Source of the DNA: Alphaproteobacteria bacterium
GTDB taxonomy: Bacteria > Pseudomonadota > Alphaproteobacteria > UBA828 > JAPUJA01
Assembly (NCBI GenBank): GCA_963694715.1
Contig: CAVOEB010000005.1
Span: 3,447-67,446, forward strand
Length of the DNA stretch: 64,000 bases
Direction of reading: 5' to 3'
This document shows positions 20,925-46,992 of this stretch, in pieces (position 1 is the first letter of the stretch; each line of letters starts with the position of its first letter). The notes below the pieces were generated by a model. The model was not told the origin of the DNA. It saw only the letters and a list, made by a program, of their open reading frames with translations, and did not search any database. Position numbers and translations under genes: made by a program.

Positions 20925-20928
20925 AGGC

Positions 20929-24223: not shown

Positions 24224-24225
24224 CC

Positions 24226-27063: not shown

Positions 27064-27245
27064 CACTTCACGTCCTCCACCTGATCGAGGCGTGTCGCCT
27101 CGATCATCGGTCCGTTGAAGAATTTTAACCAGCACCGTACGCGGATGAAACGGCCTTTTAGCGCCGTAATATCGAAGCCCTCGGGCTCGAGCGCGCGCCG
27201 GTCCGCGGGCGCAATCGCGATAGTGAAATCGGTCCGCCAGTCGCG

Positions 27246-27473: not shown

Positions 27474-27499
27474 AATCAAAAAAAGAGGTTAGCTTGTGA

Positions 27500-28075: not shown

Positions 28076-28119
28076 ACGACCGGGTTCGCCAGGGCCAGCA
28101 TTCCCGTGAAGGTCTTTCA

Positions 28120-28128
28120 CCCCCCCCC
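28120..28128 (+). repeat. C9 homopolymer tract at the 5' end of the FAD oxidase gene
   Basis: Counted directly: c28120 to c28128 within ...tttcac ccccccccac gac.... It lies between a GTG at 28106 and the main reading frame. Confidence 0.9.
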
Positions 28129-28160
28129 ACGACCCCCGCATCGGCGGCTGGTACGCCCAA

Positions 28161-29408: not shown

Positions 29409-29737
29409 GCAGCGCTTCGAGCGCCCGTTCAGTGCTCCGCGATTCTGAACGCCGCGAGTTCTATTTCAAGCTCATCGATATGCACCTTCAAGGCGTCAAT
29501 CATCGGTTCGAGATCCTCTAGGGTGTCTCGCGGCGTTTGACGTCCCAGGCCGCGAGCGTGAATACGACCGCCCGCTCGGGTTTTCCCGTGTCGGCGGGCT
29601 GGGTAGCTGGTGTTGAAGACCAAATTAGATAGGCTTATTTGTATCATCGAGGAGGAGCCTAATTAGGACTCCCTCATTGTTTTTCCGCACCCAAATGCGG
29701 TACAAGCTCCTATCGGAGAGGCGCCTGAAATAACGTC

Positions 29738-30631
29738 ATGAAAACCGAAGATATTCTCTCCAATAAGCCGTTGGTCCTGAGCCAGGCACAGCGCGAATCC
29801 TATTTCGAGACCGGCTATCTTCTGCTCGAACGCTTCGTCCCGCAGGACTGGCTCGAGCGGCTTCGCGTGCTCGCGGACGGGTTCGTCGAGATGAGCCGGG
29901 CGCTCACGGAGTCGGACGGAACACTCGATCTCGAACCCAACCACACGGCCGCCTTGCCCCGGTTGCGACGGTTGTGCGATCCCGTCGAGCATCACCCCGT
30001 GTTTTGGGAATTCACTTCCCGTGGACCGATCGTCGATCTGGCCGCCGATCTCGTCGGACCGGACGTCAAGTACCACCACTCCAAGCTAAACTTCAAATGG
30101 GGCGGCGGCGGCGAAGAAGTGAAATGGCATCAGGACATTCAGTTCTTTCCCCACTCCAACTACTCGCCGCTCACCATCGGCGTCTATCTCGAAGACGTCG
30201 ACGACGCCATGGCGCCCATGGGCGTGATCCCGGGCAGCCACGAGGGTGAACTGTTCGACCTCTACAACGAAGACGACGTCTGGACCGGTGCGATCCGGGA
30301 GGCGGACCTCAGTCGCGTCTCGTTAGAAAAGGCCGTCTTCCTGCCCGGTCCCAAGGGCTCGGTGACGATCCACAACTGCCGCACCGTTCACGGTTCGAAG
30401 CCTAACACGGCAGCGTGCGCAAGGCCGCTGTTGCTGCAGACCTACACCTCAGCGGATGCATTGAAGCTGACCAACTTCACTGACAACCTGATCCATTCCA
30501 ACCAGATCGTTCGGGGCAAGCCGGCCCGCTGGGTCGACTTCGATCCCCGCCCCTGCCTGATTCCGCCCGACTGGTCGAAAGGCTATACCTCGATCTTCGC
30601 ACTCCAGCAGGAGGAGGAGGCTAAGACCTAA
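29738..30631 (+). CDS. Phytanoyl-CoA dioxygenase (PhyH) family Fe(II)/2-oxoglutarate oxygenase
   Basis: 297 aa with VKWHQDIQFF (H-x-D facial triad) and distal VTIHNCRTVHGSKPN (His plus Arg). Confidence 0.8.
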   Translation: MKTEDILSNKPLVLSQAQRESYFETGYLLLERFVPQDWLERLRVLADGFVEMSRALTESDGTLDLEPNHTAALPRLRRLCDPVEHHPVFWEFTSRGPIVDLAADLVGPDVKYHHSKLNFKWGGGGEEVKWHQDIQFFPHSNYSPLTIGVYLEDVDDAMAPMGVIPGSHEGELFDLYNEDDVWTGAIREADLSRVSLEKAVFLPGPKGSVTIHNCRTVHGSKPNTAACARPLLLQTYTSADALKLTNFTDNLIHSNQIVRGKPARWVDFDPRPCLIPPDWSKGYTSIFALQQEEEAKT

Positions 30632-33013: not shown

Positions 33014-33436
33014 CTAGTTCTTCTCACCGTAGACAGGCAGCGCTTCGGGTGCCGGCGGCTCGCCTCCGAGAATCATATCTGTAGCCTTTTCGGCGATCAT
33101 GATAACGGCTGCATTCAATTTCGCACTCACAATCGAGGGCATGACCGAGGCATCGACCACCCGCAAGCCCTCGATGCCGTGCAGGCGCAGGCTCGGGTCG
33201 ACCACGGCAGCTTCATCCGTGCCCATCTTGGCGCTGCCGCAGGGATGATATTCCGTGTCCGCCGCGGCGCGGACGAAGGCGTCGATCTGCTCGTCGGAGC
33301 GGACCTCTGGGCCAGGCGAAATTTTCCACCTCCGGAAGGCGTCGAACGCCGGCTGGGCGAAGATTTCTTGGGTGCGCCGGACCCCTTCGCGCGCGACGCG
33401 CCGGTCCTCTTCCTCCGCTAGGTAATTGGCTTTGAT
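33014..33436 (-). pseudogene. C-terminal ~140-aa remnant of a GMC oxidoreductase (choline-dehydrogenase-like)
   Basis: ...NYLAEEEDRRVAREGVRRTQEIFAQPAFDAFRRWKISPGPEVRSDEQIDAFVRAAADTEYHPCGSAKMG...LRVVDASVMPSIVSAKLNAAVIMIAEKATDMI matches only the BetA/GMC C-terminus. The FAD-binding N-terminal ~400 aa are absent. Upstream ORF sequence is antisense to the next remnant. Confidence 0.8.
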
Positions 33437-33980
33437 GATCAACGCAGCGACGGGCCTGGTGGGCGCAGCCGGGGTACTACTCGCGCTCGCCATGGGGGCG
33501 GGCCGCATCGTAGCGCTGGGGCGCAAAGAACCTGTACTTAACGAGCTGTGCGCACTCGACCCGCGCCGGGTTTCGGCGCTCAAGATTACCCGCACGGCAG
33601 ATGACGCGCCCGCTATCCTCGACGCAGTCAACGGCGCAGCGGACATCATGCTCGACTGCGTCGGCGACATTCCAGATCCCGTCTCGACCCAGAACGCGCT
33701 CGCTGCCCTGGAACCGTATGGCTGCGCCCTGTTTGTCGGGGGCTGTTTTGGCGATCTCGCGGTCAACTACGAGTGGATGCTGGACAAGCAGATCACCATG
33801 CTCGGATCGAGTTGGTATCCGCGCCAGGGCACCGCTGAGATGGTGGGAATGATCGCCACGGGGGCGCTCGACGCCGAGGCGCTCAGAACGCGGGTGTTCT
33901 CGCTCGACGAAGCGAACGACGCGGTGCAATGGGCGGAGAAAGGACCGGGTGGGCTCGAGCACGCCGCCCTCGTGCCTTGA
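33426..33980 (+). pseudogene. C-terminal (Rossmann-domain) remnant of a medium-chain Zn-dehydrogenase/reductase
   Basis: LMINAATGLVGAAGVLLALAMGAGRIVALGR...DCVGD...LFVGG...SLDEANDAVQWAE corresponds to the cofactor domain and C-terminus of MDR alcohol dehydrogenases. The ~150-aa catalytic N-domain is missing. A TAA at 33423-33425 closes the frame upstream. Confidence 0.75.
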
Positions 33981-34053
33981 GCCGTCAGCGGCTTGACATG
34001 GCCTGGCGCCGTTCGACCTGACAATACCCTCGCCTAACCAAGCGAAGCGAAAC

Positions 34054-34085
34054 AGGCCGGGGCCCCACGTTCGGGGCTCCGGCCT
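34054..34085. terminator. 13-bp GC-rich hairpin between convergent genes
   Basis: AGGCCGGGGCCCC-loop-GGGGCTCCGGCCT (one G-U pair). It is followed by a second small GGCCC-CGAAA-GGGCC hairpin. Confidence 0.45.
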
Positions 34086-34125: not shown

Positions 34126-35145
34126 TCAGGAATAGTTCGCGCCGTAGCTGGCCCAGTCCCTATCGAATTTCGGGTGGAGCATATCGAGGAGCCCCGCGAG
34201 CCGGGGCTCCTCGTCGGGAAAATACTCCTTCATGCCGATGGCGTATTCCTGCTGCGAGACGAAGTAGTCGGGATCAAGCAGGGTAATCATGACCTCGCCC
34301 AGCACGCGGAGCATCGACATCATCTTGAAGGCGCGAACCTCGTGCAGGGTCGCTTCGATCTCCGCCGAATCGGCATCGGCAAAATAGGTCGCGACCGCGT
34401 AGCGATCCATCGCGTCGTCGGCGTCGATCCAGGTCAGCATGTCGGCAATATCCGACTTCGGGTTGCCGTAGGCCCCAGCATCCCAGTCGATGAACAGGAC
34501 CTCGCCCTTAGGGTTGAACATCATGTTCACATAGGCCAGGTCGTTGTGGGTGAAGACCGGGATAAACGGCCGTATGGCGCGCTCGAGCCGGTCGGTCACG
34601 TCGCGAAAATAAGGCACATCGCCGACCCAGGCCGAGGGCTGAAAATCCGAGGCTGCCACGCCCCGCTCCATGGTGTTGAGATAGCGGCGAATGGTGTGAA
34701 ACGGCCACCAGTAGCTGATCGTCTCCGCGATCGCGTCGGAGTTCGCGTGCAGCAGCTTCATCCGCTCGATGACGTGAGCCATCATCGCGGGTTCCTCGAT
34801 TTGCTCCTCGGTCATGACCGGAGAAGCGATGAAATCCGTGATCGTCAGGTTGGGCTCCCAGTAACGCAAGCAAGGCCCAACGCCCAGCTTGTGGGCCGCG
34901 AGCGTGCATTGGACGACGGAGGTCTGGCGGGTCCGGTATTGATCGACGCCGCAACGGATAGCATAGCGCTTGCCGTCGCCGTCGGTCGCAAAATAGGTAC
35001 GGTTGGTCAGCCCGCCGAAATGCTGCGAGACCTCGACCGCGCCGGTCCATAGGGGCAGGCTGCGGATATAGTTTTGGATCTCTTCGCTCGACCAGCTGCG
35101 CCGAATTCGCGAAATCTCGCTGCACTCGAAAACGGCGTCGCGCAT
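34126..35145 (-). CDS. Phosphotransferase of the APH / choline-ethanolamine-kinase fold
   Basis: 339 aa with Brenner-type motif FTHNDLAYVNMMF and FIDWDAGAYGNPKSDIADM. Last gene of the carboxylase-BVMO operon. Confidence 0.75.
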   Translation of the reverse strand: MRDAVFECSEISRIRRSWSSEEIQNYIRSLPLWTGAVEVSQHFGGLTNRTYFATDGDGKRYAIRCGVDQYRTRQTSVVQCTLAAHKLGVGPCLRYWEPNLTITDFIASPVMTEEQIEEPAMMAHVIERMKLLHANSDAIAETISYWWPFHTIRRYLNTMERGVAASDFQPSAWVGDVPYFRDVTDRLERAIRPFIPVFTHNDLAYVNMMFNPKGEVLFIDWDAGAYGNPKSDIADMLTWIDADDAMDRYAVATYFADADSAEIEATLHEVRAFKMMSMLRVLGEVMITLLDPDYFVSQQEYAIGMKEYFPDEEPRLAGLLDMLHPKFDRDWASYGANYS

Positions 35146-35177
35146 CTCGTTCTCCGGCCGCTGCGGGTGGATCGCCG

Positions 35178-36587
35178 TCAGAACGGCGGCCGCCGTTCGG
35201 CCCAGTTGAGTTCCTGTTCCAGCGCCTGCGCGACGCGCAACGGCGTTGCGTCATCGTGTCGCCAGCCGACGATCTGAAAGCCCGTCGGTAGGCCGTTGCC
35301 GGCAAAGCCCGAGGGCACGGAAATCGCCGGCAAGGTCAGCAAATTAAATGGGAAGGTCATCTCGTAATGGCAGAACTTCCCGTCTTTATCGTCGTGGCCA
35401 AAATTCGACTCCGGTGTTCCAACCTCGATTGCCGGCTGGGCGCTGGTCGGGCAGACCAGCCCGTCATAGCGGGAAAATATGGGCGCGATGGTTTCGGCCA
35501 AGCGGGTGCGAACCAGCTCGGTCCGCTTCAAATCCACTGCGCTTGCGGCCCGGCCACGCTCGACCGCCGCGACTAGGTCGGGCTCCATGCGATCGCGGAA
35601 CTCATCAAGACGATCGCCGACCACGAGGGCCGAGTAGACATCCCAATGGAGCCAGCCCGCCTCGTTGAGCTCGCGGCTCCAGGGCAGCTCGATCTCGTCG
35701 ACCGCAGCGCCCAGCGCGCGGAGCGTCGCGACCATTTTCCGGGTGTTCGCGACGATGTCGGGATCGACCGCGTAGTAGCCGAGATCGATGCTAAACACGA
35801 GTCGCACACCCGCGAGATCGGCCGAACCCGGCAAGGACACGGCAGGCAAGTCGGGTAGCGACGAAAAGTCGCGGTCGTCGGGGCCCTGGGCCGCGTTCAG
35901 AAAGAGCACCGCGTCCGAGACATGGTGGCAAAGCGGGCCAAAGCTGGTGTAGCTGTCGAACTGGCTCGGGAAGATATCGAAGGGGATCCGCCCCAGGCTG
36001 GGCTTGAGCCCCACGATGCCGCAGAACGACGCAGGCAATCGTATGGAACCACCCGCATCGCAGCCCTCGGCCAGCGGCACGCAGCCCGCCGCGACGGCAG
36101 CGGCCGCCCCGCCCGAAGAGCCGCCCGGCTGGTGGTCGAGATTCCAGGGGTTACGCGTCACACCCCAGAGCGGCGTGTCCATCTGGAAGGAATAGGCCAA
36201 CTCCGAGGTCACCGTCTTGCCCACCATGATAGCGCCAGCGTCCCGCAGTCGTTCGACGATCGCAGCATCCTGTTCGGGGATCCAGTTTTCATAGAGATAG
36301 GAGCCCTGGGTGGTGCGCTTGCCCTTGGTCGGCGTCATATCCTTGAACGCTATAGGAACCCCGTGCAACGGGCCCAGTGCCTCGCCTTTCACGACCGCCT
36401 CTTCGGCGGCCCGCGCGGCGGCAAGGGCCTCGTCGGCGTAGACGAAGCAGAAGCAGTTGAGCGCCGGGTTTACTTCCTCGATTCGATCGAGGCAATTTTG
36501 CACCACATCGACCGGGGAGAGCGCCCGGGTTCGGACCGCCGTGGCGATCTCGCCGGCGGACAGGCCGCACAGCTCAGGATCGCTCAT
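35178..36587 (-). CDS. Amidase-signature (AS) family amidase
   Basis: GGSSGGAAAAVAAG signature and a Ser-cisSer-Lys scaffold. Start trimmed to the ATG at 36587 (MSDPELCGLSAGEIA); 36617 is an alternative. Confidence 0.85.
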   Translation of the reverse strand: MSDPELCGLSAGEIATAVRTRALSPVDVVQNCLDRIEEVNPALNCFCFVYADEALAAARAAEEAVVKGEALGPLHGVPIAFKDMTPTKGKRTTQGSYLYENWIPEQDAAIVERLRDAGAIMVGKTVTSELAYSFQMDTPLWGVTRNPWNLDHQPGGSSGGAAAAVAAGCVPLAEGCDAGGSIRLPASFCGIVGLKPSLGRIPFDIFPSQFDSYTSFGPLCHHVSDAVLFLNAAQGPDDRDFSSLPDLPAVSLPGSADLAGVRLVFSIDLGYYAVDPDIVANTRKMVATLRALGAAVDEIELPWSRELNEAGWLHWDVYSALVVGDRLDEFRDRMEPDLVAAVERGRAASAVDLKRTELVRTRLAETIAPIFSRYDGLVCPTSAQPAIEVGTPESNFGHDDKDGKFCHYEMTFPFNLLTLPAISVPSGFAGNGLPTGFQIVGWRHDDATPLRVAQALEQELNWAERRPPF

Positions 36588-36662
36588 GGCTCGATAGCCC
36601 CCCATTTCGACGAGCACGCCGCGACACGCGCGCGCTGAGCCCGCCCCTTCAGGGGGCTGGGC

Positions 36663-38291
36663 TTAGCCAAGGGCAAAGCCTTCGTAGCCCTTTGAGACGA
36701 TCTCGTCGCATTTTTTTACATATTGAGGAAAGCCGATATAGGACAGGAAGACCCGCGCCTTGCCCGGGATGTTCGAGCCGACATACCAGGAATCCTGCAA
36801 CGGATAGACCGACCGGTCGGCCACTTCGTTGACATGAGCGACCCAGGCGTCCTGGGCTTCGGCCGTCGCCTCAATGCGGCTATGGCCGTGTTCTCGCATG
36901 TAGTCCAAGCAATCGGCGATGAACTCGACATGCTGTTCGATGGACTGAACCATATTGCTCAAGACCGACGGGCTGCCCGGTCCGGTGATCATGAACAGGT
37001 TGGGAAAGCCCGCAACGCTGAGCCCCAGAAGCGTGCGCGCGCCATTATCCCAGTTGGCGGCGAAAGACAGGCCGCCCCGGCCGCGGATATCGACACGCGT
37101 AAGCGCGCCAGTCACGGCGTCGAAGCCAGTAGCAAAGACGATGGCGTCGAGCTCGCACTCCCTATCGCCGACCCGAAGCCCGGTCGGTGTGATCTCCTCG
37201 ATCGGCGTTTTGCTCACATCGACGAGGGTGACGTTCTCCCGGTTATAAGTGGCGTAGTAGTCCGTATCGACGCACAACCGCTTGCACCCAATCAGAAAAT
37301 GGGGCGAAAGACTTTTGGCGACCTCCGGATCGCGAACAGTCTCACGGATCTTTGAACGGACATATTCGCCCGCGGTGTCGTTGGCCTCGACTGTGTCGAA
37401 CAGATCGGCGTACGCGCCCATATACGCGACCCCGCCCAGCGCCCAGCGGGCCGTATACTCGCGCTTGCGTTCTTCGGGCGTGACCTCGAAGGCGCTCTTT
37501 TCACTAACATCGAACAAGATGCCCGATCGGTTCTGCCTCGCCTTGGCGCGAAGTTCGGCGTAATGGGCCTTGAAGTCCTGCTGCTTTTCGGGAGAAAGCA
37601 GCTTGTTATGAGCCGGCACGCTGAAGCTCGGCGTACGCTGGAAGACAAGGAGCTGCTTCGCCTGCTCCGCGATCAGCGGGATAGCCTGGATACCCGACGA
37701 CCCGGTGCCGATGACGCCGACCCGCTGGCCGCTGAAATCGACCCCCGTCTCGGGCCAGTCGCCGGTGTGGTAGGTGGCGCCCGTGAAGTTGTCCAGACCC
37801 TTGAAATCCGGGATGTTGCGCGCCGACATGCAGCCCGTCGCCATGATGCAGAAGCGCGCCGTGACCACATCGTCGTGGTCGGTTTCAACGGTCCAGAGAG
37901 CGCCGTCTTCGTCGAAGTGCGCCCTCGTGACCCGAGTCTCGAACTGGATGTCGCGGCGCAGGTCGAAGCGGTCGGCAACGTGATCCAGGTAGCGCAGGAC
38001 CTCGGGCTGGGTGGCGTAGCGCTCGCTCCACTCCCACTCTTGCTGGAGCGCTTCGTCGAACTGGTAGGAATATTCCATGCTCTCGACATCGCAGCGCGCG
38101 CCGGGATAGCGGTTCCAGAACCAGGTCCCGCCGACCCCGCTGCCATCTTCGAAGACCCGTACGGAAAAGCCCATGCCACGCAGCTTATGGAGCATGTAGA
38201 GCCCGGCAAACCCGGCGCCGACAACGACGGCGTCAACTTCGCTTTCGGGAGCAGGACTATGGGTTTGGGATGACGATTGCGCAGACGACAT
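36663..38291 (-). CDS. Baeyer-Villiger monooxygenase (type I, FAD/NADPH)
   Basis: 542 aa with GAGFAG, GGTWFWNRYPGARCD, BVMO fingerprint FTGATYHTGDWP and a second Rossmann motif GVIGTGSSG. Confidence 0.88.
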   Translation of the reverse strand: MSSAQSSSQTHSPAPESEVDAVVVGAGFAGLYMLHKLRGMGFSVRVFEDGSGVGGTWFWNRYPGARCDVESMEYSYQFDEALQQEWEWSERYATQPEVLRYLDHVADRFDLRRDIQFETRVTRAHFDEDGALWTVETDHDDVVTARFCIMATGCMSARNIPDFKGLDNFTGATYHTGDWPETGVDFSGQRVGVIGTGSSGIQAIPLIAEQAKQLLVFQRTPSFSVPAHNKLLSPEKQQDFKAHYAELRAKARQNRSGILFDVSEKSAFEVTPEERKREYTARWALGGVAYMGAYADLFDTVEANDTAGEYVRSKIRETVRDPEVAKSLSPHFLIGCKRLCVDTDYYATYNRENVTLVDVSKTPIEEITPTGLRVGDRECELDAIVFATGFDAVTGALTRVDIRGRGGLSFAANWDNGARTLLGLSVAGFPNLFMITGPGSPSVLSNMVQSIEQHVEFIADCLDYMREHGHSRIEATAEAQDAWVAHVNEVADRSVYPLQDSWYVGSNIPGKARVFLSYIGFPQYVKKCDEIVSKGYEGFALG

Positions 38292-38351
38292 GGATACACC
38301 TCTAGCTCGTGCGCGGGGGCAGTCAAAGATTTGGTCGCGTCGGGGCTCGTG

Positions 38352-39836
38352 TCAAGCGGATATGGCCACTCGGCGGTGGCGGCGGAGCGTAAGCGAGGTT
38401 TCCTGATCCTCATAACGCAGGTAATTCGTGTCGACCATTCGGATTAACGAGGCGACCGTCTCCAGCTCGGGCGAAGACAGGGTGGAAAAATCGCGACGCG
38501 TTGGGCCGGCGGCACGCATCTTTTCGATATCGCTTTCAGGCACCAACGCACGCAGAAACAGCTCGTCGTCGGAGAGGTCGGCGCCAAGCTCCTTGCGTAG
38601 CTCTTCTAGGGTGGGTTGGGGCGGCGGCGTATTGGCAACCTGCTTTGCGCGCGGCGCGCTCATGATGCGATCGAGAATGTCCGGCTTGATCTCGCCCACG
38701 GGCTCGCCGTAAAGGCCTGCGGCATACTGGATGACCTCGTCGGGGATCACCGAATAGCGCTTGCCGGTGACGACGTTGAGCACCGCGAGAGTACCCACGA
38801 GCTGGGAAAACGGCGTCGCCATCCCCGGATAGCCGAGCTCGCGGCGGACCACCGCGGTCTCGCGCAGGACGTCGCCGTATTTTTCGGGCATGCCATGCTG
38901 GGCGAGCTGGTTCTTGAAGGTACCCGTCATGCCGCCCGGCACCTGATGTTGGGCGTAAAATAGGTCGTACTCCTGGGGCACGCCGACGGCGTAGCCCATC
39001 GCCTTAGCGACCGCGCGGAAATTTTCCTCGATGGCGGGGCAGTGGGACAGATCGAGCCCGTGGCTGTGTCCGGCAGCCTCCATATTACGCGCCATGGTGT
39101 CGACCGAAGGCGGCGCGGGACCGTCCGAGAGCGGCCGGTTGCAGGTGTGGAACCGGTCGATCCCGAGCTCGACCGCCGCCAGGTAGGTGTGTGAGGCGAT
39201 GCCGATCGAATTATGGCAGATCAGCTCGATTGTCCGCCCGCCCGCCGCCGCCTGGATCCCAGGGATCAGGGTGCGCGCGCGCTCGGGCGTGAGCACACCG
39301 GATGCGTCGTAAATGAGAAAACGGTCGACGTCGGGACTGGCGGCATAGAGTTTCGTGCGCTCGGCATAAAAGGCGTCCGTATGCACCGGGCTGTCGGCAT
39401 AGAACAGCGCGATGACGACCATTGCATCAGTCTCCTTCGCAACCCTCGCAAGCCGGTGGGCCTTATCGGCATTGGCAAGCAGCACGTCATAGATCCAGAC
39501 CGTGTCCATACCGTGGGCACAGAGCCGGCGCATCCAGAGGTCCATGATCGAATCGGGCGAGACCGAAAAGGTCACAGCCGCGTTGGTCCGCATGCCCGCG
39601 CGGAACCGGCTGTTGGGCATGGATGCCACCATCAAGTCCAGGCCCTCCCAGGGATCTTCCTGGCAATAGCGGATCAGCACTTCGAACTGGGAACTCCCGC
39701 CTATGTCGACGACCTCGTAACCGACCTTGTCGATCAGCGGCGTGGCGGGCAGCGCCTGGCCCGCCTGCATGCGCATGCCCCAGTGACATTGCTGGCCGTC
39801 GCGCAGCGTGGTGTCGATAAACTCGATGTGGGCCAT
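38352..39836 (-). CDS. Carboxyltransferase subunit of the pyruvate-carboxylase/oxaloacetate-decarboxylase (5S, HMGL-like) type, without biotinyl domain; atypical active-site motifs
   Basis: 494 aa with FIDTTLRDGQQ, EDPWEGL and HQVPGGMTGTFKNQL...PFSQLVGTLAVLNV matching the OadA/PycB fold. IYDASG replaces the usual IKDMAG, and ICHNSIG replaces H-x-H-D-T-S-G. Confidence 0.75.
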   Translation of the reverse strand: MAHIEFIDTTLRDGQQCHWGMRMQAGQALPATPLIDKVGYEVVDIGGSSQFEVLIRYCQEDPWEGLDLMVASMPNSRFRAGMRTNAAVTFSVSPDSIMDLWMRRLCAHGMDTVWIYDVLLANADKAHRLARVAKETDAMVVIALFYADSPVHTDAFYAERTKLYAASPDVDRFLIYDASGVLTPERARTLIPGIQAAAGGRTIELICHNSIGIASHTYLAAVELGIDRFHTCNRPLSDGPAPPSVDTMARNMEAAGHSHGLDLSHCPAIEENFRAVAKAMGYAVGVPQEYDLFYAQHQVPGGMTGTFKNQLAQHGMPEKYGDVLRETAVVRRELGYPGMATPFSQLVGTLAVLNVVTGKRYSVIPDEVIQYAAGLYGEPVGEIKPDILDRIMSAPRAKQVANTPPPQPTLEELRKELGADLSDDELFLRALVPESDIEKMRAAGPTRRDFSTLSSPELETVASLIRMVDTNYLRYEDQETSLTLRRHRRVAISA

Positions 39837-39840
39837 GGTG

Positions 39841-41211
39841 TCAGCCTTCCTGGGCGTTGACGGCGAGCATCAGAACAGATTCGAGCCAGCGCACGCTCAC
39901 CCCGCCCCGGACGAAATCGGGATGGGCGAGCAGTGCGCGCTGAAACGCGATATTGGTCTCGATCCCTTCGACGGCGAAGTCGTCGAGGGCGGCGCCCAGC
40001 CGCGCCAGCGCCTCGGCGCGGGTCGGCGCATAGGCGATCAGCTTGCCAATCATGGAATCATAGAATGGGGGCACCAGATCGCCCTCACGAATGTGGCTGT
40101 CGAGGCGCAGGCCCTCGCCCGCTGGCGGGCGCCAGGTGGTGACGCGCCCTGGCGAGGGCGCAAAATCCCGGCCCGGCGATTCCGCGTTGATACGGCACTC
40201 GATCGCATGACCGCGAAGCACAACGTCGGCCTGGGCAAACGATAGCGGCGCGCCGCCCGCGATGCGCAGTTGCTCACGCACGATATCGATGCCGGTAACC
40301 ATCTCCGTGACCGGGTGCTCGACCTGGATGCGGGCGTTCATCTCGATGAAGCAGGGTTTGCCCCGGTCCATGTTGTAGAGAAACTCCACGGTTCCCGCGT
40401 TGCGATACCCGATATGGCGCACGAGCTGAAGCGCGGCTTCATGCAGACGGGCACGGGCCGCATCGGGCAGCACCGGAGCTGGCGCCTCCTCGACGACCTT
40501 CTGGTAGCGCCGTTGGGCGGAACAATCCCGCTCGCCGAGATGGACCGCGTTGCCGTGGTCGTCGGCCAGCACCTGCACCTCGATATGCCGGGCGTTGGCA
40601 ATAAAGCGCTCCATATAGAGCGTACCGTCGTTGAACGCGGCGGCCGCTTCCGCAGACGCTTTTTCAAAGCAGCCGCGAATCGCGTCAGCATCCGTGGCGA
40701 CGAACATGCCCCGCCCGCCCCCACCGGCCGCGGCCTTGATGACCACGGGGTAGCCCATCGCGTCCGCGCGGGCTACGGCCTCGTCCACCGAGCCCACCGC
40801 TTCCGAGCCCGGCATCAGCGGCACGCCCGCCTCGGCCGCGACGCGCCGGGCGGCGATCTTGTCGCCCAACTGCTCGATGGTCTCGGGCCGGGGCCCGATG
40901 AAGAGAATACCGTTCTCGGCGCACGCGCGGGCGAAACCGGCGTTCTCGGCGAGGAACCCGTAGCCGGGATGGAGCGCGTCGCAGCCCGTGCCCTTCGCGG
41001 CCATGACTAAGGCGCCGGGATTGAGGTAACTGGCTTGGGCAGCCGCGGGACCGACGCAAATGGCGCGCTCGGCCAGCTCGGCGCCGCGGCCCTCGCGATC
41101 GGCCTCGGAGACGCCGAGCACGGTCTCGATGCCCTCGGCGTGACACGCCTCGATGACCCGGACCGCGATCTCGCCCCGGTTCGCGACGAAGACGCGCGCG
41201 AGAGTGCCCAT
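39841..41211 (-). CDS. Biotin carboxylase subunit (ATP-grasp)
   Basis: 456 aa with RVFVANRGEIAVRVIEA, GYPVVIKAAAGGGGRGM, EMNARIQVEHPVTE and HAIECRINAE. Confidence 0.9.
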   Translation of the reverse strand: MGTLARVFVANRGEIAVRVIEACHAEGIETVLGVSEADREGRGAELAERAICVGPAAAQASYLNPGALVMAAKGTGCDALHPGYGFLAENAGFARACAENGILFIGPRPETIEQLGDKIAARRVAAEAGVPLMPGSEAVGSVDEAVARADAMGYPVVIKAAAGGGGRGMFVATDADAIRGCFEKASAEAAAAFNDGTLYMERFIANARHIEVQVLADDHGNAVHLGERDCSAQRRYQKVVEEAPAPVLPDAARARLHEAALQLVRHIGYRNAGTVEFLYNMDRGKPCFIEMNARIQVEHPVTEMVTGIDIVREQLRIAGGAPLSFAQADVVLRGHAIECRINAESPGRDFAPSPGRVTTWRPPAGEGLRLDSHIREGDLVPPFYDSMIGKLIAYAPTRAEALARLGAALDDFAVEGIETNIAFQRALLAHPDFVRGGVSVRWLESVLMLAVNAQEG

Positions 41212-41226
41212 AAACCGGTCGCGCGC

Positions 41227-41694
41227 TCAGTCGAGGGGATCGAGGCGGAAAAGCGGCTGATCGAATTCGACCATCTCGCCATCCTCAACCAGCACCTCGA
41301 CGATGCGCCCTTTGCTCCCCGCCTTAATCGGCGTGAACAGCTTCATGACCTCGATCAGGCAGACCTCGGTGTCCTCGTCGACGGTCGCGCCGATCTCGAT
41401 ATAGGCCGGCGCGCCGGGTTTGGGCCGGCGCCAGAACGTGCCTAGATTCGGCGCACGGACGAGCAAACCCTCGACCGGCTGGGGCGGCGAGGCAGGTGCG
41501 GGTGTCGTCGCGGGCTTTGTCGAGACAGGGGCTGGTGGCGTATCGGAGCGAGCGCTGGAGAAACCGCCATCGACATTGTCGGGATCGGTCGAGAGAAGCA
41601 ACGTCGCACCACCGACCTTGAGGCGCATTTCATCCCAGCCGGATTCGCGAAAAACGCGCGTGATCTGCTCGATATCCTGTTCGGTCAGTGCCAC
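41227..41694 (-). CDS. Biotin carboxyl carrier protein
   Basis: C-terminal biotinyl domain with VCLIEVMKLFTPIKA (E-x-MK-L biotinylation motif) after a Pro/Ala linker. Start placed at the GTG at 41694, preceded by GGGAG. The ORF track extends to 41817. Confidence 0.8.
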   Translation of the reverse strand: MALTEQDIEQITRVFRESGWDEMRLKVGGATLLLSTDPDNVDGGFSSARSDTPPAPVSTKPATTPAPASPPQPVEGLLVRAPNLGTFWRRPKPGAPAYIEIGATVDEDTEVCLIEVMKLFTPIKAGSKGRIVEVLVEDGEMVEFDQPLFRLDPLD

Positions 41695-41748: not shown

Positions 41749-41761
41749 ATTGTCAGACAAT
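41749..41761. promoter_or_regulatory. Candidate FadR-type GntR operator ATTGTCaGACAAT
   Basis: Perfect 6+1+6 palindrome fitting the T-GT-N3-AC-A FadR-subfamily pattern. It lies 55 nt upstream of the BCCP start, in the surE/BCCP divergent region. A near-identical copy is at 43554-43566. Confidence 0.5.
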
Positions 41762-41834: not shown

Positions 41835-42620
41835 ATGACCGCAGCACTGGTCGATCCGGCCAACCTTCGAATTTTGATTGTCAACGACGACGGCGTTCAC
41901 GCGCCGGGCATCGAGCGGATGGAGGCGTTCGCACACGAATTGTCGGACGACGTATGGATCGTGGCGCCGGAATACGACCAAAGCGGCACGGGCCATTCTC
42001 TGACGCTGGTCGATCCCATCCGTATCCGTCAATTGGGGGGAAAGCGCTTCGCCGTGCGCGGCACGCCAACCGACTGCGTGGTGATGGCGCGCAACCAGAT
42101 CATGCGGGACGCACTTCCCACCCTGGTGCTTTCGGGTGTGAACCGGGGGCTCAACGCCGCTGAGGACGTGACCTATTCGGGCACCATCGCGGGCGCCATG
42201 GAAGCGACGCTGCTGGGCATCCCGGCGATCTGCCTCAGCCAGGCCTTCCGCAACCGCAACGACGTAAAGTGGCAGACCGCGGAGCGTTACGGCCCCGATC
42301 TTCTGGCCCGGCTGATCGCTCATGGTTGGCCGGTGGGCACGTTTCTCAATGTCAACTTTCCTCCGGTCGACCCCGACGAGGTCAAGGGGGTGAAAATCAC
42401 CTGCCAGGGCCAGCGCGGCCAAAGTTCGCTCCAGATCACCGACCGCATCGACGCCCGCGGCTTTCCCTATTACTGGCTGCACCTCGACCACGAGAAGGCC
42501 GCCTACCCCGAGGATACGGACCTGGCAGCCCTCGACGCGGGCTACATCTCGGTAACCCCGCTGCAGCTCGATCTGACCAATCACGCCGCAATAGATTCAC
42601 TGCACGCGGCGCTGGCCTAG
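41835..42620 (+). CDS. surE: 5'/3'-nucleotidase SurE
   Basis: 261 aa with ILIVNDDGVHAPGI, GTGHSLT and SGVNRGLNAAEDVTYSGTIAGAMEA. Confidence 0.92.
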   Translation: MTAALVDPANLRILIVNDDGVHAPGIERMEAFAHELSDDVWIVAPEYDQSGTGHSLTLVDPIRIRQLGGKRFAVRGTPTDCVVMARNQIMRDALPTLVLSGVNRGLNAAEDVTYSGTIAGAMEATLLGIPAICLSQAFRNRNDVKWQTAERYGPDLLARLIAHGWPVGTFLNVNFPPVDPDEVKGVKITCQGQRGQSSLQITDRIDARGFPYYWLHLDHEKAAYPEDTDLAALDAGYISVTPLQLDLTNHAAIDSLHAALA

Positions 42621-42676: not shown

Positions 42677-43429
42677 TCAGCCACCGGCGGCGAACAGAGA
42701 ATCAGGCAGACGATCCAGGCGCGCACGCGTACGCCGTAAGTGGCGGCGCATGGCGCGCTCCGCGCCGCGCGCATCGCTCGCAAGAACCGACGCGGCGATG
42801 GCCTCGTATTCTTCAAAGAAATGGCGCGACGACGCCACCAGGGTCATCTGGCGGAACTGCATGCGCATCAGGTGCATCTGGAGCAGCGGTGTACTGTGCG
42901 AGAGTTCGAGGTTCCCGCCGATCTGCACCAGCGTGTCGTAAAACTCCGTGCGCGCCTGCATCAGCGCCATGCCCTCGGGGTGGGTACGAAATTGGAGCAC
43001 CCTTTCGAGCGCCGCCTCGAACCTGGCGCGGTGATCCGCTTCGCCGATCCGCTCGGCGGCCAGGCCTGCCCCGAGCGTGGCGAGACGCTCGAAGACCGCC
43101 AAAATATCGTGCATATCCGAGCGCGAAAGTGAGCGGACGTAGGCGCCACGATGGGCCACCAGGTCGATCAGCCCTTCCGCCGCAAGCCGCTTGAGCGCCT
43201 CGCGCACCGTGCCGCGCGAGACGCCGTACTCCGCGGTCAGATCGGCTTCGATCAACCGTTGACCCGGGACATAACGGCCCGACTGGATCCCGTCATTGAG
43301 CGCCGCCACAAGCTGGTCGGGCGAACTGGGACCGTGGCGTGGCGCGGCGGCGCGGCGAGCAGTGCTAATTGGGGCGGTCGTTGCAGTCACGAGAGTCTTC
43401 TTTTGTGGTTGGCGACGATTGCCGATCAT
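42677..43429 (-). CDS. GntR-family transcriptional regulator, FadR/FCD subfamily
   Basis: 250 aa with wHTH LIEADLTAEYGVSRGTVREALKRLAAEGLI and an all-helical FCD-like C-domain. Confidence 0.85.
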   Translation of the reverse strand: MIGNRRQPQKKTLVTATTAPISTARRAAAPRHGPSSPDQLVAALNDGIQSGRYVPGQRLIEADLTAEYGVSRGTVREALKRLAAEGLIDLVAHRGAYVRSLSRSDMHDILAVFERLATLGAGLAAERIGEADHRARFEAALERVLQFRTHPEGMALMQARTEFYDTLVQIGGNLELSHSTPLLQMHLMRMQFRQMTLVASSRHFFEEYEAIAASVLASDARGAERAMRRHLRRTRARLDRLPDSLFAAGG

Positions 43430-43553: not shown

Positions 43554-43566
43554 ATTGTCGGACAAT
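43554..43566. promoter_or_regulatory. Candidate FadR-type GntR operator ATTGTCgGACAAT
   Basis: Perfect 6+1+6 palindrome in the divergent region between the GntR gene (start 43429) and the thiolase-like gene (start 43611). Differs from the 41749-41761 copy only at the central base. Confidence 0.55.
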
Positions 43567-43610: not shown

Positions 43611-44777
43611 ATGACCGGATGCATGGTAGGCTGGGCCCATACGCCCTTCGGCAGGCTCGACGACGAGGACACGGAATCGCTGATCGTGCGCGTCGTGCGC
43701 GAGGCAGTGGCTGATGCGGACATCGGCTTCGAGGATATCGACGAGATCGTCCTCGGCCAATATAACGGCGGCTTCGATCCCCAGGGTTTTCCCTCCTCCC
43801 TGGCACTTCAGGCCGACCCGGCACTTCGCTTCACACGGACCACCCGTGTCGAGAATGCCTGTGCGACAGGCACGGCGGCGATCTACCAGGGCCTGCGCAG
43901 CCTGGAGGCAAAGCAAGCCCGCTTCGTACTCGCCATCGGCGTTGAAAAGATGACCGCGGCCGAGCGCGCGCGGGTCCCCAAGATTCTGCTGAGCGGCAGC
44001 TACGTCAAGGAAGAGGCGGACATCGAGGGCGGCTTCGCCGGTATTTTCGCGCAAGTTGCGCGGGCCTATTTCCAGCGCTTCGGCGAGCAAAGCGACGCCA
44101 TGGCGCGAATCGCCGCGAAAAATCACAAGAACGGCTCGGTCAACCCCTACGCCCATGTGCGCAAGGACCTGGGTTTCGAATTCTGCCGCACGGTCTCGGA
44201 CAAGAACCCAATGGTCTGCGATCCCTTGCGGCGCACCGATTGCTCGATGGTCTCGGACGGCGCCGCCGCGGTCGTGCTGACCGATACCGCCACCGCGCTG
44301 GGGCGGAAGAAGGCGGTAATCTTTCGCGCCGCCCAGCAGGTCAACGATTTTCTACCCATGAGCCGGCGCGACGTGGTGCTCTACGAAGGACCGGAGCGGG
44401 CTTTCCAGAAAGCCTATGATGAAGCCGGAGTGAGCGTGAACGATCTCGATTTTGCCGAGGTCCACGACTGCTTCACCATCGCCGAGCTGATGATCTACGA
44501 GGCCATGGGCCTGACGCCGAAAGGCGAAGGCGCGCGCGCCATCGACGAGGGCTGGACCGAGAAGAACGGTCGCTTGCCGGTCAACCCCTCGGGCGGGCTG
44601 AAGGCCAAGGGCCACCCCATCGGCGCCACGGGAGTCTCGATGCATGTGGTCGCCGCCGAGCAGCTCATGGGCAGTGCGGACGCCATGCAGATCTCCGGCG
44701 CCGAGCTCGGCGCCGTGTTCAACATGGGCGGTGCCGGGGTCGCCAATTGCACGAGTCTGCTCGAGCGCCTGCGCTGA
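43611..44777 (+). CDS. Thiolase-fold protein (SCP-x/lipid-transfer-type thiolase-like)
   Basis: Start trimmed to the ATG at 43611 (RBS GGGAGAAG). Contains [12 protein letters not shown] (active-site Cys), GHPIGATGV and NMGGAG. Confidence 0.8.
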
Positions 44778-44800: not shown

Positions 44801-46192
44801 ATGACCGAGCTTCGCCCGAACGAGCCGGACCTTGCCGCCCTCGACCGGGCGGGCATGATCCACCCCTTCTCGCAACTCCACGATCAGGCGCGCAAGGACC
44901 CTCTGATTTTCACCCACGGACAAGGTGTGACTATCACGGACGCGGCCGGGCGCGACTATATCGACGCGGGTTCGTCCCTGTGGTGCGTCAACGTCGGCTA
45001 TGGGCGCGACGAGATCGTCGAAGCGGCGGCCGAGCAGATGCGCACCCTGCCCTTCGTTCATATCTTCAGCAGCAACTCCCACGCACCGGTCATTCGTCTG
45101 ACCGAGAAGCTGCTCGAATTGGCGCCCGCCAATATGTCCAAGGTGCTCTTCGGCAACGGCGGCTCGGACGCGAACGACACCCAGGTCAAGATCGCCTGGT
45201 ACTACAACAACGCCCGCGGTAAACCCGCCAAAAAGAAGATCATTTCGCGGCGGCGTGCGTATCACGGCGCCACGGTCGTCGCGGGTAGCCTTACGGGTCA
45301 TGAGATCGTCCATAGCGGCTTCGACCTGCCGCTCGATTTCGTGCGCCATACCGACTGTCCCGACTGGCATCGGCGCGGCGACGCGGCCCAGACGCCCGAG
45401 GAGCACGCAACCGCACTGGCCGAGCAGCTCGACGCACTGATCGAAGCGGAGGGTCCGGACACGGTCGCCGCCTTCATCTCCGAGCCGATCATGGGCGGCG
45501 GCGGCGTGCTCGTGCCCCCGCCGGCCTACGGCCCCGCGGTGCAGGAGGTGCTGGCCCGGCACGACGTGCTGTTTATTGCCGACGAGGTGATCTGCGGCTT
45601 CGGTCGTACGGGAAACTGGTGGGGCTCGGAGACGGTGGGTTTTGCGCCTGACCTGATGAGCGTCGCCAAAGGCATCACCAGCGCCTATCTACCCATGTCG
45701 GCCTGCCTGATCTCGGACAAGGTGTGGGAGGCGCTCGATGCCGGCGCGGCGACGCTGGGCCCGTTCGGCCACGGCTTTACGACTACAGGGCACCCGGTGG
45801 CCGCGGCGGTGGCGCTCAAGAATATAGAGATTATCGAACGCGAGGACCTGGTGGGCAATTCGCGGCGTACCGGCGATTACCTGATCGCGCGACTGCGTGC
45901 CGAACTGGGCGATCACCCGTTGGTCGGCGAGATCCGGGGGGCAGGATTGCTGGCCGGGGTCGAACTCGATGCCGACAAGGAAACTCGCACGCCTTTCGAA
46001 GATGCGATGGCGGTGGGCTCGCGGCTCGGTAAGCTGTGCCTTGAGAATGGGCTGATCGTGCGCGGTGCGCTGGGCAAAGCGGTCGCCGCCATGGCGCCGC
46101 CCCTGATCGCCACCGAATCCGACGCCGACGAGATCGTCGCGCGACTGGGCCGCTCCCTCGACCAACTGCATGATGCCCTCCAGGCCGAGTAG
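44801..46192 (+). CDS. Class-III PLP-dependent aminotransferase (omega-amine:pyruvate transaminase-like)
   Basis: Start trimmed to the ATG at 44801 (RBS AGGAG). Contains [37 protein letters not shown] and [10 protein letters not shown] (PLP Lys). Confidence 0.85.
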
Positions 46193-46224: not shown

Positions 46225-46992
46225 ATGACGGAACCCAGGAAAGTCGCGATCGTTACCGGCTCGGCCACGGGGATCGGCGCGGCTTGCGCGCTGAGACTGG
46301 CGGGCCACGGCTATAACGTCGTCATCAACTGCACGGCAAGCCTCACAGAGGCGGAGGAGACCGCCGCGGCGTGCCGCGAGGCAGGTGTCGAAGTACTGAT
46401 CTTGCCCGCCGACGTCGCCGACGACGGCCAATGCCGCGCGCTCGCCCAGGCGGCACTCGACGCCTGGGGGCGAATCGACGCACTGATCAACAACGCTGGG
46501 CGAACCAAATTCGTCAAGGCCGAAGACTTCGAAGGGCTGACCGCCGAGGATTTCCAGTCGATCTACGCCGTGAACACGGTGGGCGCGTTCCAGACCGCGC
46601 GGGCCGCCGCGGACGCCCTACGCGCGGCTAATGGCGCGCTCGTCAACGTCTCCTCGCTGTCCGCTTATACGGGCCTGGGAAGCTCGATCGCCTATGCCGC
46701 GTCGAAGGGCGCGCTCAATACCCTGACCCTCTCGCTCGCCCAGACCTTAGCTCCCGAGGTACGGGTCAACGCTGTCTGTCCCGGCTATGTGGACACCCGC
46801 TGGATGCAGCGGACCATGGAGCCGGACCGCTACGAGCGGTTTCTGGCGGGCTTGCGCAAGCATGCGCCGCTGGCCACCGTGACCCAGGCCGACGACGTTG
46901 CCGAAGCGGTGTGCTGGTTCGTCGAGGGCGGGCGCACGATTACCGGCCAGATGCTGACCATCGACGCGGGCATGCACCTGACCATGGGGTGA
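46225..46992 (+). CDS. Short-chain dehydrogenase/reductase (classical SDR)
   Basis: 255 aa with TGSATGIG, NNAG and YAASKGAL (catalytic Y-x3-K). Confidence 0.88.
   Translation: MTEPRKVAIVTGSATGIGAACALRLAGHGYNVVINCTASLTEAEETAAACREAGVEVLILPADVADDGQCRALAQAALDAWGRIDALINNAGRTKFVKAEDFEGLTAEDFQSIYAVNTVGAFQTARAAADALRAANGALVNVSSLSAYTGLGSSIAYAASKGALNTLTLSLAQTLAPEVRVNAVCPGYVDTRWMQRTMEPDRYERFLAGLRKHAPLATVTQADDVAEAVCWFVEGGRTITGQMLTIDAGMHLTMG

Follow-up and report, generated by a model that had tools for sequence, protein, structure and literature searches.

Which compound is carboxylated by a biotin-dependent enzyme whose carboxyltransferase (CT) has a tyrosine in place of the metal-site lysine, and which of the genes around it are its real partners? 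The question is raised by an alphaproteobacterial contig, of which we analysed a stretch of 64,000 nucleotides (the window). Six intact open reading frames, co-oriented and tightly spaced on the minus strand, lie at 34126-41694 and are followed by a likely operon end:

34040..34084, minus strand: GC-rich hairpin, then a T-rich tract, 3' of the kinase stop; likely operon end (read by eye)
34126..35145, minus strand: kinase of the APH/choline-kinase fold, 339 aa; proposed substrate kinase (Pfam Choline_kinase and APH)
35178..36587, minus strand: amidase-signature hydrolase, 469 aa; lineage-specific insertion (Pfam Amidase, 350 bits)
36663..38291, minus strand: type I BVMO, PAMO-like, 542 aa; lineage-specific insertion (Pfam flavin monooxygenase families)
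38352..39836, minus strand: CT of the 5S/PycB/OadA fold without a biotinyl domain, 494 aa (Pfam PYC_OADA and a weak HMGL-like match)
39841..41211, minus strand: biotin carboxylase (BC), 456 aa (Pfam Biotin_carb_N, CPSase_L_D2 and Biotin_carb_C)
41227..41694, minus strand: BCCP, 155 aa, GTG start (Pfam Biotin_lipoyl; EVMKL biotinylation motif)

The initial annotation had proposed a tight, co-oriented six-gene operon, and this is borne out by the coordinates, the Pfam assignments and the intergenic gaps, which from BCCP to kinase are 15, 4, 60, 75 and 32 bp. Catalytic motifs are retained in all six proteins, as judged from Pfam and NCBIfam profiles and from motif reading. The GTG start of BCCP is preceded by a GGGAG ribosome-binding site; the protein scores 104 bits with the NCBIfam model TIGR00531, slightly below the cut-off of 115, and the BC scores 626 bits with the accC subfamily NF006367 (cut-off 597). 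One related MAG (n = 1, ~86% nucleotide identity) carries the identical six genes in the identical order, which counts little as independent evidence of the operon because the two are close kin. A consensus promoter/terminator scan returned site counts not above those of shuffled sequence. The hairpin at 34040..34084 was not among its sites, no terminator-like site fell between operon genes and its sites in the operon were all within coding regions. Synteny with locus L010 stops at 34133.

We then compared the CT with its structurally characterised relatives. Pfam recognises PYC_OADA (96 bits) and HMGL-like (40 bits) domains, and Foldseek with an AlphaFold model (pLDDT 88.8) gave 1rqb, 5ks8 and 2nx9 as best matches (TM ~0.8). 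With phmmer, FLIYDASG of the CT aligns with IALKDMAG, and ELICHNS with HLHCHST, in OadA 2nx9, PycB 5ks8 and 5S 1rqb alike; MAFFT alignments with outgroups of these types gave the identical register, and the model has beta strands at 172-177 and 202-207. The position of the carbamylated lysine (Kcx) is thus occupied by Tyr176 (codon 39309-39311) and the first His of H-x-H by Ile206 (codon 39219-39221), while the second His is retained as His208 (codon 39213-39215). The loss of the Lys and of one His had been read by eye; proper alignment did not recover the canonical residues. The same reading held that the metal-binding Asp is kept, and D8 and D13 are indeed both conserved; more precisely, the ligand in pyruvate carboxylase is the Asp of 'RD', which corresponds to D13 and not to D8. 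With D13 and His208 kept and the other two positions replaced, the full Asp/Kcx/H-x-H site is absent. The CT nonetheless retains R12, D13, Q16, R83 and T341. Within its clade R12, Q16, R83 and T341 are invariant in our alignments; we equate them with the residues of substrate enolisation in R. etli pyruvate carboxylase, which are Arg548, Gln552, Arg621 and Thr882. The substitutions fit the suggestion that neither pyruvate nor oxaloacetate is the substrate. An OadA-like decarboxylase role was ruled out, as the operon has an intact ATP-dependent BC.

The atypical active site is nearly family-wide. Tyr176 is invariant in the closest 120 of 2,928 database matches to the CT, and Tyr occupies the Kcx position in nearly all CTs of the best 80 genome loci, a set in which SYK-6, N. 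aromaticivorans and Aromatoleum do not appear. A literature search found no paper on this Tyr-type clade, and a search for a link to steroid or pregnane carboxylation returned nothing relevant.

The nearest described logic is that of the Hpe/Acv pathway. There, HpeHI, AcvAB or MarK phosphorylates 4-hydroxyacetophenone or acetovanillone, and HpeD or AcvF performs the dephosphorylation step (PMC9618137; bioRxiv 10.1101/2022.04.28.489975; PMC12624787). The three-subunit carboxylase HpeCBA accepts the phosphorylated ketone as its only substrate (PMC9618137). The acvCDE genes are in the order BCCP-BC-CT (bioRxiv 10.1101/2022.04.28.489975), and a kinase swap, MarK in place of AcvAB, has been documented (PMC12624787). 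From the literature we had at first assigned the window CT to the Xcc/Hpe/Acv family. This was dropped: CTs from plasmid loci with the exact hpe, acv or marK gene order are only 34-38% identical to it, retain the Lys and H-S-H, carry Thr in place of Arg83 and group in a clade of their own. In this comparison the synteny-defined proxies L099, L103, L101 and L104 stood in for HpeA, AcvE and XccA. Placed by these proxies, the window CT is outside the Hpe/Acv clade, in a sister clade with near-universal Tyr. Both the distance and the altered active site (Y for K; Arg83 where the proxies have Thr) count against the Hpe/Acv analogy.

Gene neighbourhoods within the CT's clade were then examined for conserved partners. 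In 44/83 non-redundant loci a PEP-synthase-like dikinase gene set adjoins BCCP-BC-CT, together with an AMP-binding ligase and a thiolase; an APH kinase takes the place of the dikinase in three loci, whose CTs form one subclade. The window kinase matches PF01633 (Choline_kinase; 48 bits, cut-off 29) and PF01636 (APH; 44 bits, cut-off 23), and the motifs HNDLAYVN and IDWD, of the HxDxxxxN and DxD types, can be read in its sequence. Homologues with 58-59% identity directly follow the CT in L002, L003 and L011. The family is small (146 database matches), and since paralogues, one of them 83% identical at the protein level, occur in unrelated contexts, the kinase is not dedicated to the window CT. 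The neighbourhoods of its homologues are diverse (AtuA/OYE/ACAD, PutA/OpuAC, transaminase plus phosphatase) and indicate no substrate. A tblastn search of plasmids was uninformative on context, all matches being below 50% identity for the amidase and below 29% for the kinase. No HpeHI-, AcvAB- or MarK-like gene lies near the cluster, and the operon kinase has a different fold; by analogy, the APH/choline-kinase fold is a putative third kinase type for phosphorylation-carboxylation pathways. APH-fold kinases usually target alcohol hydroxyls, not phenolic ones, which counts against a kinase-coupled reading, as do the paralogues in unrelated contexts and the finding that ~20/53 long Tyr-type loci are without any kinase type looked for.

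Further candidate partners lie on the other side of BCCP:

41749..41761, no strand: palindrome ATTGTCAGACAAT in the divergent SurE/BCCP intergenic region; candidate GntR/FCD operator (pattern TTGTCNGACAA)
41835..42620, plus strand: SurE-family phosphatase, divergent from the operon; proposed product phosphatase (NF001490, 343 bits, cut-off 233)
42677..43429, minus strand: GntR/FCD transcriptional regulator (Pfam GntR and FCD)
43554..43566, no strand: second palindrome copy ATTGTCGGACAAT between GntR and thiolase, 45 bp upstream of the thiolase ATG
43611..44777, plus strand: SCP-x-type thiolase, 388 aa (NF005704, 631 bits, cut-off 412)
44801..46192, plus strand: class III amine:pyruvate (omega) transaminase (Pfam Aminotran_3; NF004767, 581 bits, cut-off 517)
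46225..46992, plus strand: short-chain dehydrogenase/reductase, SDR (Pfam adh_short)

The SurE gene is adjacent to the operon and shares a candidate operator with it; its product differs in fold from the HAD-type HpeD and AcvF. SurE adjoins the CT in 13 Tyr-type loci, and in L051 and L083 it is directly 3' of the CT on the same strand, the slot held by the HAD phosphatase AcvF/HpeD in hpe/acv-type operons. Phosphatases of three folds (SurE, His_Phos_1 and PTP-like) occur among the Tyr-type loci. However, a recognisable phosphatase is within 10 kb in only 14/53 of the long ones, which argues against a phosphatase-coupled reading.

Within the window the pattern TTGTCNGACAA is matched twice, where 0.01 matches are expected. 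Both palindromes are conserved in L010, that at 41749..41761 in the identical place, and in many related loci a similar palindrome lies upstream of the first gene of the cluster. Homologues of the GntR regulator (41-85% identity) occur in many of the related loci. The ATTGTCNGACAAT sites are candidate GntR targets, predicted from sequence. A palindrome common to the SurE/BCCP and GntR/thiolase promoters links the functional unit beyond 34126-41694: the six genes of the initial annotation are real, but the unit reaches SurE, which had been overlooked, GntR and the thiolase/transaminase/SDR operon. The thiolase is 93% identical to that of L010 and 80% to that of L012, and the SDR is 87% identical in L010. 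The transaminase, whose best PDB relatives are omega-transaminases, is not in L010, relative to which it is a 1.45 kb insertion; a role as phospho-lyase partner of the kinase was ruled out on these two grounds. No CoA ligase gene adjoins the cluster in the window, a point against the pathway proposed below; L010 and L002 have one nearby.

The BVMO and amidase behave differently. As in type I enzymes, the BVMO combines two Rossmann motifs with the FxGxxxHxxxWP fingerprint and a catalytic Arg. It matches phenylacetone monooxygenase (PAMO, 1w4x) end to end (660 bits, 55% identity), keeps the KR(337)L motif and GPGSPSxLSNM bulge, and contains the BVMO fingerprint FTGATYHTGDWP. The amidase covers profile positions 1-443 of 445 of PF01425 (350 bits) with a GGSSGG motif and the catalytic Lys. 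No NCBIfam model reached its cut-off, and in the PDB the closest match over the full length is aryl acylamidase 4yj6. Of the CT loci, only those of the window and of a 95% relative (L001/L010) have the pair beside the CT; in L002, L003 and L011 the kinase comes directly after the CT with neither gene between. BVMO and amidase are thus a two-gene insertion confined to the window/L010 lineage. Conserved with the CT are the proposed substrate kinase, the SurE phosphatase, the thiolase and the GntR regulator with its common operator. That a kinase, a phosphatase and a thiolase are the genomic partners of the CT points to a substrate different from those of pyruvate carboxylase, OadA and 5S.

Taken together, and by analogy with Hpe/Acv, we think it probable that the six genes form the heart of a catabolic regulon under GntR control, in which a hydroxylated ketone is degraded via phosphorylation-coupled, biotin-dependent carboxylation. 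The SDR, and in this genome also the omega-transaminase, would yield the ketone from a secondary alcohol or amine. From analogy and gene position, the APH-fold kinase would use ATP to phosphorylate the ketone hydroxyl. By homology, BC would carboxylate the BCCP biotin and the CT move CO2 to the carbon beside the carbonyl, giving a phosphorylated beta-keto acid; R12, Q16 and T341, which serve enolisation, are retained, the Kcx/His site is lost, and Tyr176 presumably polarises the carbonyl instead. SurE, from the equivalence of its slot with that of AcvF/HpeD, would take off the phosphate, and CoA activation would precede release of acetyl-CoA by the thiolase. The BVMO and amidase would most likely form an oxygen-dependent side branch for related ketones (ketone to ester, then hydrolysis), as AcpAB does in Rhodococcus GD02; alternatively, the amidase may free an amine from an N-acyl precursor. 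As to the substrate, we lean towards an aryl ketone from the sequences of the PAMO-like BVMO and aryl-acylamidase-like hydrolase, although the retained Arg83 and the choline-kinase-like kinase may allow a small aliphatic hydroxy- or amino-ketone. A bolder proposal, which we put forward tentatively and with some doubt, is that Tyr-type CTs are a large 5S-fold class working without a carbamylated-lysine metal centre on phosphorylated ketones, the anionic group beside the carbonyl being bound by Arg83; the operon would then be an undescribed APH-kinase pathway for a small hydroxy- or amino-ketone, not acetovanillone.

Other explanations were weighed against this phosphorylation-coupled pathway. 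The locus might encode a true Hpe/Acv hydroxyphenylethanone pathway, for acetovanillone or 4-hydroxyacetophenone, in which only the accessory enzymes have been exchanged. The logic and the BCCP-BC-CT order are identical, the exchange of MarK for AcvAB is a precedent (PMC12624787), and the 55% BVMO-PAMO identity equals that reported for the GD02 acetophenone monooxygenase AcpA (PMC9618137). The 34-38% identity, separate clade and differing Lys, H-S-H and Thr residues of the CTs nevertheless make this quite improbable, and none of vanAB, pobA and the pca genes was seen in the annotated parts of the window. Carboxylase/kinase and BVMO/amidase could instead be two unrelated modules that act on different compounds and are co-transcribed by accident of insertion. 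The pair is indeed confined to one lineage, exactly between CT and kinase, and the region has other rearrangement scars (downstream gene fragments, the transaminase insertion and a putA remnant). Yet the insertion is intact, with no frameshifts, in two genomes ~86% identical in nucleotides, the scan placed no terminator-like site between the genes, and in GD02 a BVMO and a hydrolase act on the ketone class used by the carboxylase pathway (PMC9618137); we regard the accident as unlikely.

The initial annotation had itself been reminded of urea carboxylase and allophanate hydrolase, that is, of an amide or nitrogen atom being carboxylated and the product hydrolysed by the amidase. Beyond the presence of a biotin carboxylase and an amidase-signature enzyme in one operon, the evidence runs the other way. 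The amidase is not conserved with the CT family, being absent from all CT loci but L001/L010. It scores 164-185 bits with allophanate hydrolase models whose cut-offs are 487-511, and has 469 aa against their 563-600 positions. The CT has the 5S fold, not that of urea carboxylase, and retains the Arg/Gln/Thr set that serves C-H enolisation in pyruvate carboxylase. We consider this reading extremely improbable and abandon the analogy.

To our knowledge, every structurally characterised CT of the 5S/pyruvate-carboxylase/OadA type holds its metal with a carbamylated lysine. That the recently discovered acetovanillone carboxylases have a widespread sister family in which this lysine is an invariant Tyr raises the question of a metal-free reaction. 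If the proposed pathway is correct, the phosphorylate-carboxylate-dephosphorylate strategy for oxygen-independent ketone activation gains a third kinase fold and a new phosphatase fold, and possibly reaches substrates beyond lignin-derived aromatics. Ketone carboxylases that cost one ATP are relevant to lignin valorisation and CO2-fixing biocatalysis, and the predicted GntR operator offers an experimental way to the inducer and hence to the substrate.

Compared with pyruvate carboxylase/PycB, OadA and 5S, the window CT has the common fold of TIM barrel plus PYC_OADA domain (TM ~0.8) and keeps the RD..Q motif, Arg83 and the TPxSQ threonine at 27-30% identity; it differs in having Tyr176 for Kcx, Ile206 for the first metal His and no fused BCCP. 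The resemblance to PAMO and to the AcpA/AcpB acetophenone route is in the BVMO, which shares 55% identity with PAMO from end to end, has a PAMO-type active-site bulge and is followed by a hydrolase gene; the hydrolase here is of the amidase-signature type, not an alpha/beta-hydrolase esterase, and the pair sits within a carboxylase operon. The named Hpe/Acv systems are HpeHI-HpeCBA-HpeD of Rhodococcus rhodochrous GD02, AcvAB-AcvCDE-AcvF of Sphingobium SYK-6, MarK-AcvCDEF of Novosphingobium aromaticivorans and XccABC of Aromatoleum aromaticum. Like these, the window has a separate BCCP, BC and 5S-fold CT without a biotinyl domain in one operon, in the BCCP-BC-CT order of acvCDE, with a putative substrate kinase and a putative product phosphatase, both of other folds, within the cluster and predicted CoA-dependent cleavage downstream. 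In contrast to the proxies with hpe, acv or marK gene order, its CT has Tyr at the position of the carbamylated Lys, the H-x-H is degenerate, and Arg83 is retained where those CTs carry Thr. The kinase belongs to the APH/choline-kinase fold and not to the PEP-synthase-like or UPF0261 types, the phosphatase is a SurE and not a HAD enzyme, a thiolase stands in for the HpeF hydrolase or VceAB, and BVMO and amidase are added. The claim that no pathway with this combination had been described therefore holds in part: close homologues of the whole six-gene operon are without an assigned pathway, but the logic of carboxylase, kinase and SurE is that of the published Hpe/Acv systems (PMC9618137; bioRxiv 10.1101/2022.04.28.489975; PMC12624787).

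The six minus-strand reading frames proposed in the initial annotation were all present at the following coordinates. Each was intact, and the gaps between them were 4 to 75 bp.

41227-41694, minus strand: biotin carboxyl carrier protein (BCCP); GTG start codon preceded by GGGAG, biotinylation motif EVMKL
39841-41211, minus strand: biotin carboxylase (BC), scoring 626 bits (above cut-off) against the accC subfamily model
38352-39836, minus strand: 5S/PycB/OadA-type carboxyltransferase (CT) without a biotinyl domain
36663-38291, minus strand: type I Baeyer-Villiger monooxygenase (BVMO)
35178-36587, minus strand: amidase-signature enzyme
34126-35145, minus strand: APH/choline-kinase-fold kinase

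A terminator scan found no terminator-like site between the operon genes (the sites reported within the operon were all non-intergenic), and 3′ of the kinase stop we could read by eye a GC-rich hairpin followed by a T-rich tail. Since the left part of the window carries housekeeping genes (e.g. ThrRS, glycosyltransferases and QueG), the region looks chromosomal; its G+C content is 55-68%.

We aligned the CT with OadA (2nx9), PycB (5ks8) and the 5S subunit (1rqb) using phmmer, and with the same outgroups using MAFFT. The phmmer alignments were mutually consistent and MAFFT concurred: the carbamylated Lys of the metal site (Kcx; I-A-L-K-D-M-A-G) corresponds to Tyr176 (codon 39309-39311), and the first His of H-x-H to Ile206, while the second, H208, is kept. 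The register originally read by eye is thus upheld, with the canonical Lys and H-x-H both absent. The metal-site Asp, also claimed to be retained, is indeed conserved; in pyruvate carboxylase the metal is bound by the Asp of 'RD', which is D13 in the window's CT. The residues equivalent to the pyruvate-handling Arg548, Gln552, Arg621 and Thr882 of pyruvate carboxylase (R. etli numbering), namely R12, Q16, R83 and T341, are conserved as well. In an AlphaFold model of the CT (pLDDT 88.8), residues 172-177 and 202-207 form beta strands. The best structural matches to this model were 1rqb, 5ks8 and 2nx9 (TM ~0.8, 26% identity), and the structural comparison returned no nearer solved structure.

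A database search with the CT gave 2,928 matches at E < 1e-10. Tyr176 is invariant in the closest 120; at the H-x-H position most of these have H-x-N and about a quarter H-x-H, and I-x-H is confined to the small subclade of the window's CT. From these alignments the Tyr substitution is the mark of a family (hereafter Tyr-type) and not of one protein. The original interpretation is thereby supported in part: the CT is atypical, which implies a substrate other than pyruvate. A literature search found no paper on the Tyr-type clade.

Other genomic settings of the family were also seen. In several sphingomonad loci (L024, L035, L036, L066, L087 and others) a Tyr-type CT lies beside BCCP with no adjacent BC, in clusters resembling those for steroid side-chain degradation (ChsH2-type OB fold, paired ACADs, paired thiolase-like genes, ECH and OYE); these may represent another use of the same CT family. 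Loci L005-L007, L038, L044 and L058 each carry three tandem Tyr-type CT paralogues per operon, and none of L005-L007 showed a BC gene within 10 kb.

We then compared gene neighbourhoods of the CT homologues. The nearest public relative of the window is an uncultured alphaproteobacterial MAG (L010), whose CT is 95% identical and which is collinear with the window from 51265 down to 34133 at ~86% nucleotide identity. Among the neighbourhoods compared, a BVMO and amidase beside the CT are confined to the window and L010. In the next relatives, L002, L003 and L011 (CT 68-70% identical), an orthologue of the APH-fold kinase is the gene directly after the CT. Across the wider clade (83 non-redundant loci, CT 51-62% identity), 44 loci combine the genes of a PEP-synthase-like dikinase (PEP-utilizers, PPDK_N and two unassigned proteins) with an AMP-binding ligase, BCCP-BC-CT and thiolase. 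Phosphatases recur too: SurE in 13 loci, His_Phos_1 in three and a PTP-like protein in one, and in L051 and L083 SurE is the next gene after the CT and has its orientation.

In the window, a SurE gene (41835-42620) is divergent from BCCP; past it lie a GntR/FCD regulator and then a divergent thiolase/omega-transaminase/SDR operon. The palindrome ATTGTCNGACAAT has exactly two matches in the 64 kb window (0.01 expected by chance), at 41749-41761 and 43554-43566, so that both divergent promoter regions have one copy. It is kept in L010, and related sites lie upstream of many related clusters. We read it as a candidate GntR operator, and its sharing is read as joining the six-gene operon, SurE, GntR and the thiolase/transaminase/SDR genes into one putative regulon.

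The BVMO is 55% identical end to end to phenylacetone monooxygenase (PAMO, 1w4x), and has kept Arg337 together with the bulge and Met of the PAMO type; its next relative is steroid monooxygenase. The amidase has its catalytic motifs, and among solved structures an aryl acylamidase is the best match over the full length. The family models gave no match to a named amidase subfamily and, its pairing with the CT being so restricted, the suggested analogy with urea carboxylase/allophanate hydrolase fails. The transaminase, an amine:pyruvate omega type, has no counterpart in L010, relative to which it is an insertion of 1.45 kb. The kinase belongs to a small family (146 database matches) with paralogues in several unrelated catabolic contexts. 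Positions 34126-35162 are 82% identical in nucleotides to 9984-11020 of L090, a match spanning exactly the length of the kinase gene and nothing beyond, and the L090 context (AtuA, OYE, ACAD, DyP peroxidase) is unrelated to the operon; on this comparison, the kinase gene behaves like a movable single-gene cassette. Together the added genes suggest a modular ketone-catabolism island and do not fix its substrate.

Remnants and further catabolic genes were noted nearby. Directly downstream of the operon, where synteny with L010 stops, are two truncated fragments:

33091-33460, minus strand: GMC oxidoreductase C-terminal domain
33459-33854, plus strand: ADH_zinc_N domain

In their place L010 has ECH, a split ACAD, an ADP-forming acyl-CoA synthetase and a Rieske oxygenase. 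Amine-/osmolyte-type catabolic genes occupy 19653-30631 (DAO oxidases, M24 creatinase-like peptidases, PhyH and a dimethylglycine/sarcosine-dehydrogenase-like DAO + GCV_T protein). Within this stretch, 27282-27452 (plus strand) codes for no more than the C-terminal 57 residues of a PutA-like protein, a putA 3′ remnant that is 82% identical to the PutA C-terminus in L091 and overlaps the predicted 5′ end of an opposite-strand M48 peptidase frame. In L091 and L093 putA is intact, and paralogues of the operon's kinase come after it.

In the mechanism we propose, the kinase would phosphorylate the substrate of the carboxylase, Tyr176 would take over the function of the metal centre and SurE would remove the phosphate from the product; the SDR and transaminase would supply the substrate, presumably a hydroxylated ketone, and the BVMO and amidase would probably form a side branch for related ketones. 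A related logic is known. In Rhodococcus GD02 the first enzyme is HpeHI, which phosphorylates acetovanillone or 4-hydroxyacetophenone at the 4-OH. HpeCBA, a biotin carboxylase of three subunits, accepts no ketone but the phosphorylated one and carboxylates it at the cost of one ATP, after which HpeD dephosphorylates the carboxylated product (PMC9618137). Sphingobium SYK-6 has acvABCDEF, with AcvC as BCCP, AcvD as BC and AcvE as CT (bioRxiv 10.1101/2022.04.28.489975), and Novosphingobium has the UPF0261 kinase MarK in place of the dikinase (PMC12624787). The subunit letters given to the CT and BC conflict between sources, the CT being HpeB/XccC in PMC9618137 (Table 1) and ApkA/XccA in bioRxiv 10.1101/2022.04.28.489975. 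GD02 also handles acetophenone alongside the Hpe pathway through an esterase and AcpA, a BVMO as close to PAMO as that of the window (PMC9618137).

As proxies for the characterised CTs, namely HpeA/ApkA, AcvE (SLG_06500), Saro_1859 and XccA (one of WP_011236023-25), we chose plasmid CTs from loci whose gene order is exactly that of hpe, acv or marK:

L099, Rhizobium leguminosarum plasmid: dikinase alpha and beta, BCCP, BC, CT, HAD, acetoacetate-CoA ligase
L103, Rhodococcus sp. JS3073 plasmid: arrangement as in L099
L101, Pseudomonas putida YC-AE1 plasmid: Tm-1-like/UPF0261 kinase, BCCP, BC, CT, HAD
L104, Sphingobium yanoikuyae plasmid: as in L101, plus VceAB-like BKACE and thioesterase genes

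The proxies are 44-60% identical among themselves, matching the published 42-55% for AcvE, XccA and ApkA; the window's CT is only 34-38% identical to them. They keep Lys (x-K-D-P-G-G) and H-S-H where the window's CT has Tyr176 and I-x-H, and have Thr at the position of Arg83, which the window's CT has in common with pyruvate carboxylase. In a neighbour-joining tree with 5S, PycB and OadA as outgroup, the Tyr-type and Hpe/Acv/MarK clades are sisters, and the APH-linked CTs group together as a single subclade of the Tyr-type clade. Basal to the Tyr clade are the CTs of L096 and L098 (Rhodococcus plasmids pA and pRB98), with Glu at the Kcx position and H-F-H; their neighbours include a DUF35 OB-fold protein, a thiolase and a tyrosine-phosphatase-like gene, a further phosphatase fold for such clusters. 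The widest interest lies in this loss of Kcx throughout a family that is large, unstudied and sister to the acetovanillone carboxylases.

By analogy, the logic of the hydroxyphenylethanone pathway accounts for the carboxylase, kinase and phosphatase genes lying together in the window, where the kinase is of the APH fold and not a dikinase or UPF0261 protein, and the phosphatase is SurE and not a HAD protein. The initial annotation knew of no described pathway with this gene combination: a related pathway is known, but the window's CT falls outside its clade, as judged by alignment with proxies for the characterised proteins that were defined by gene order.
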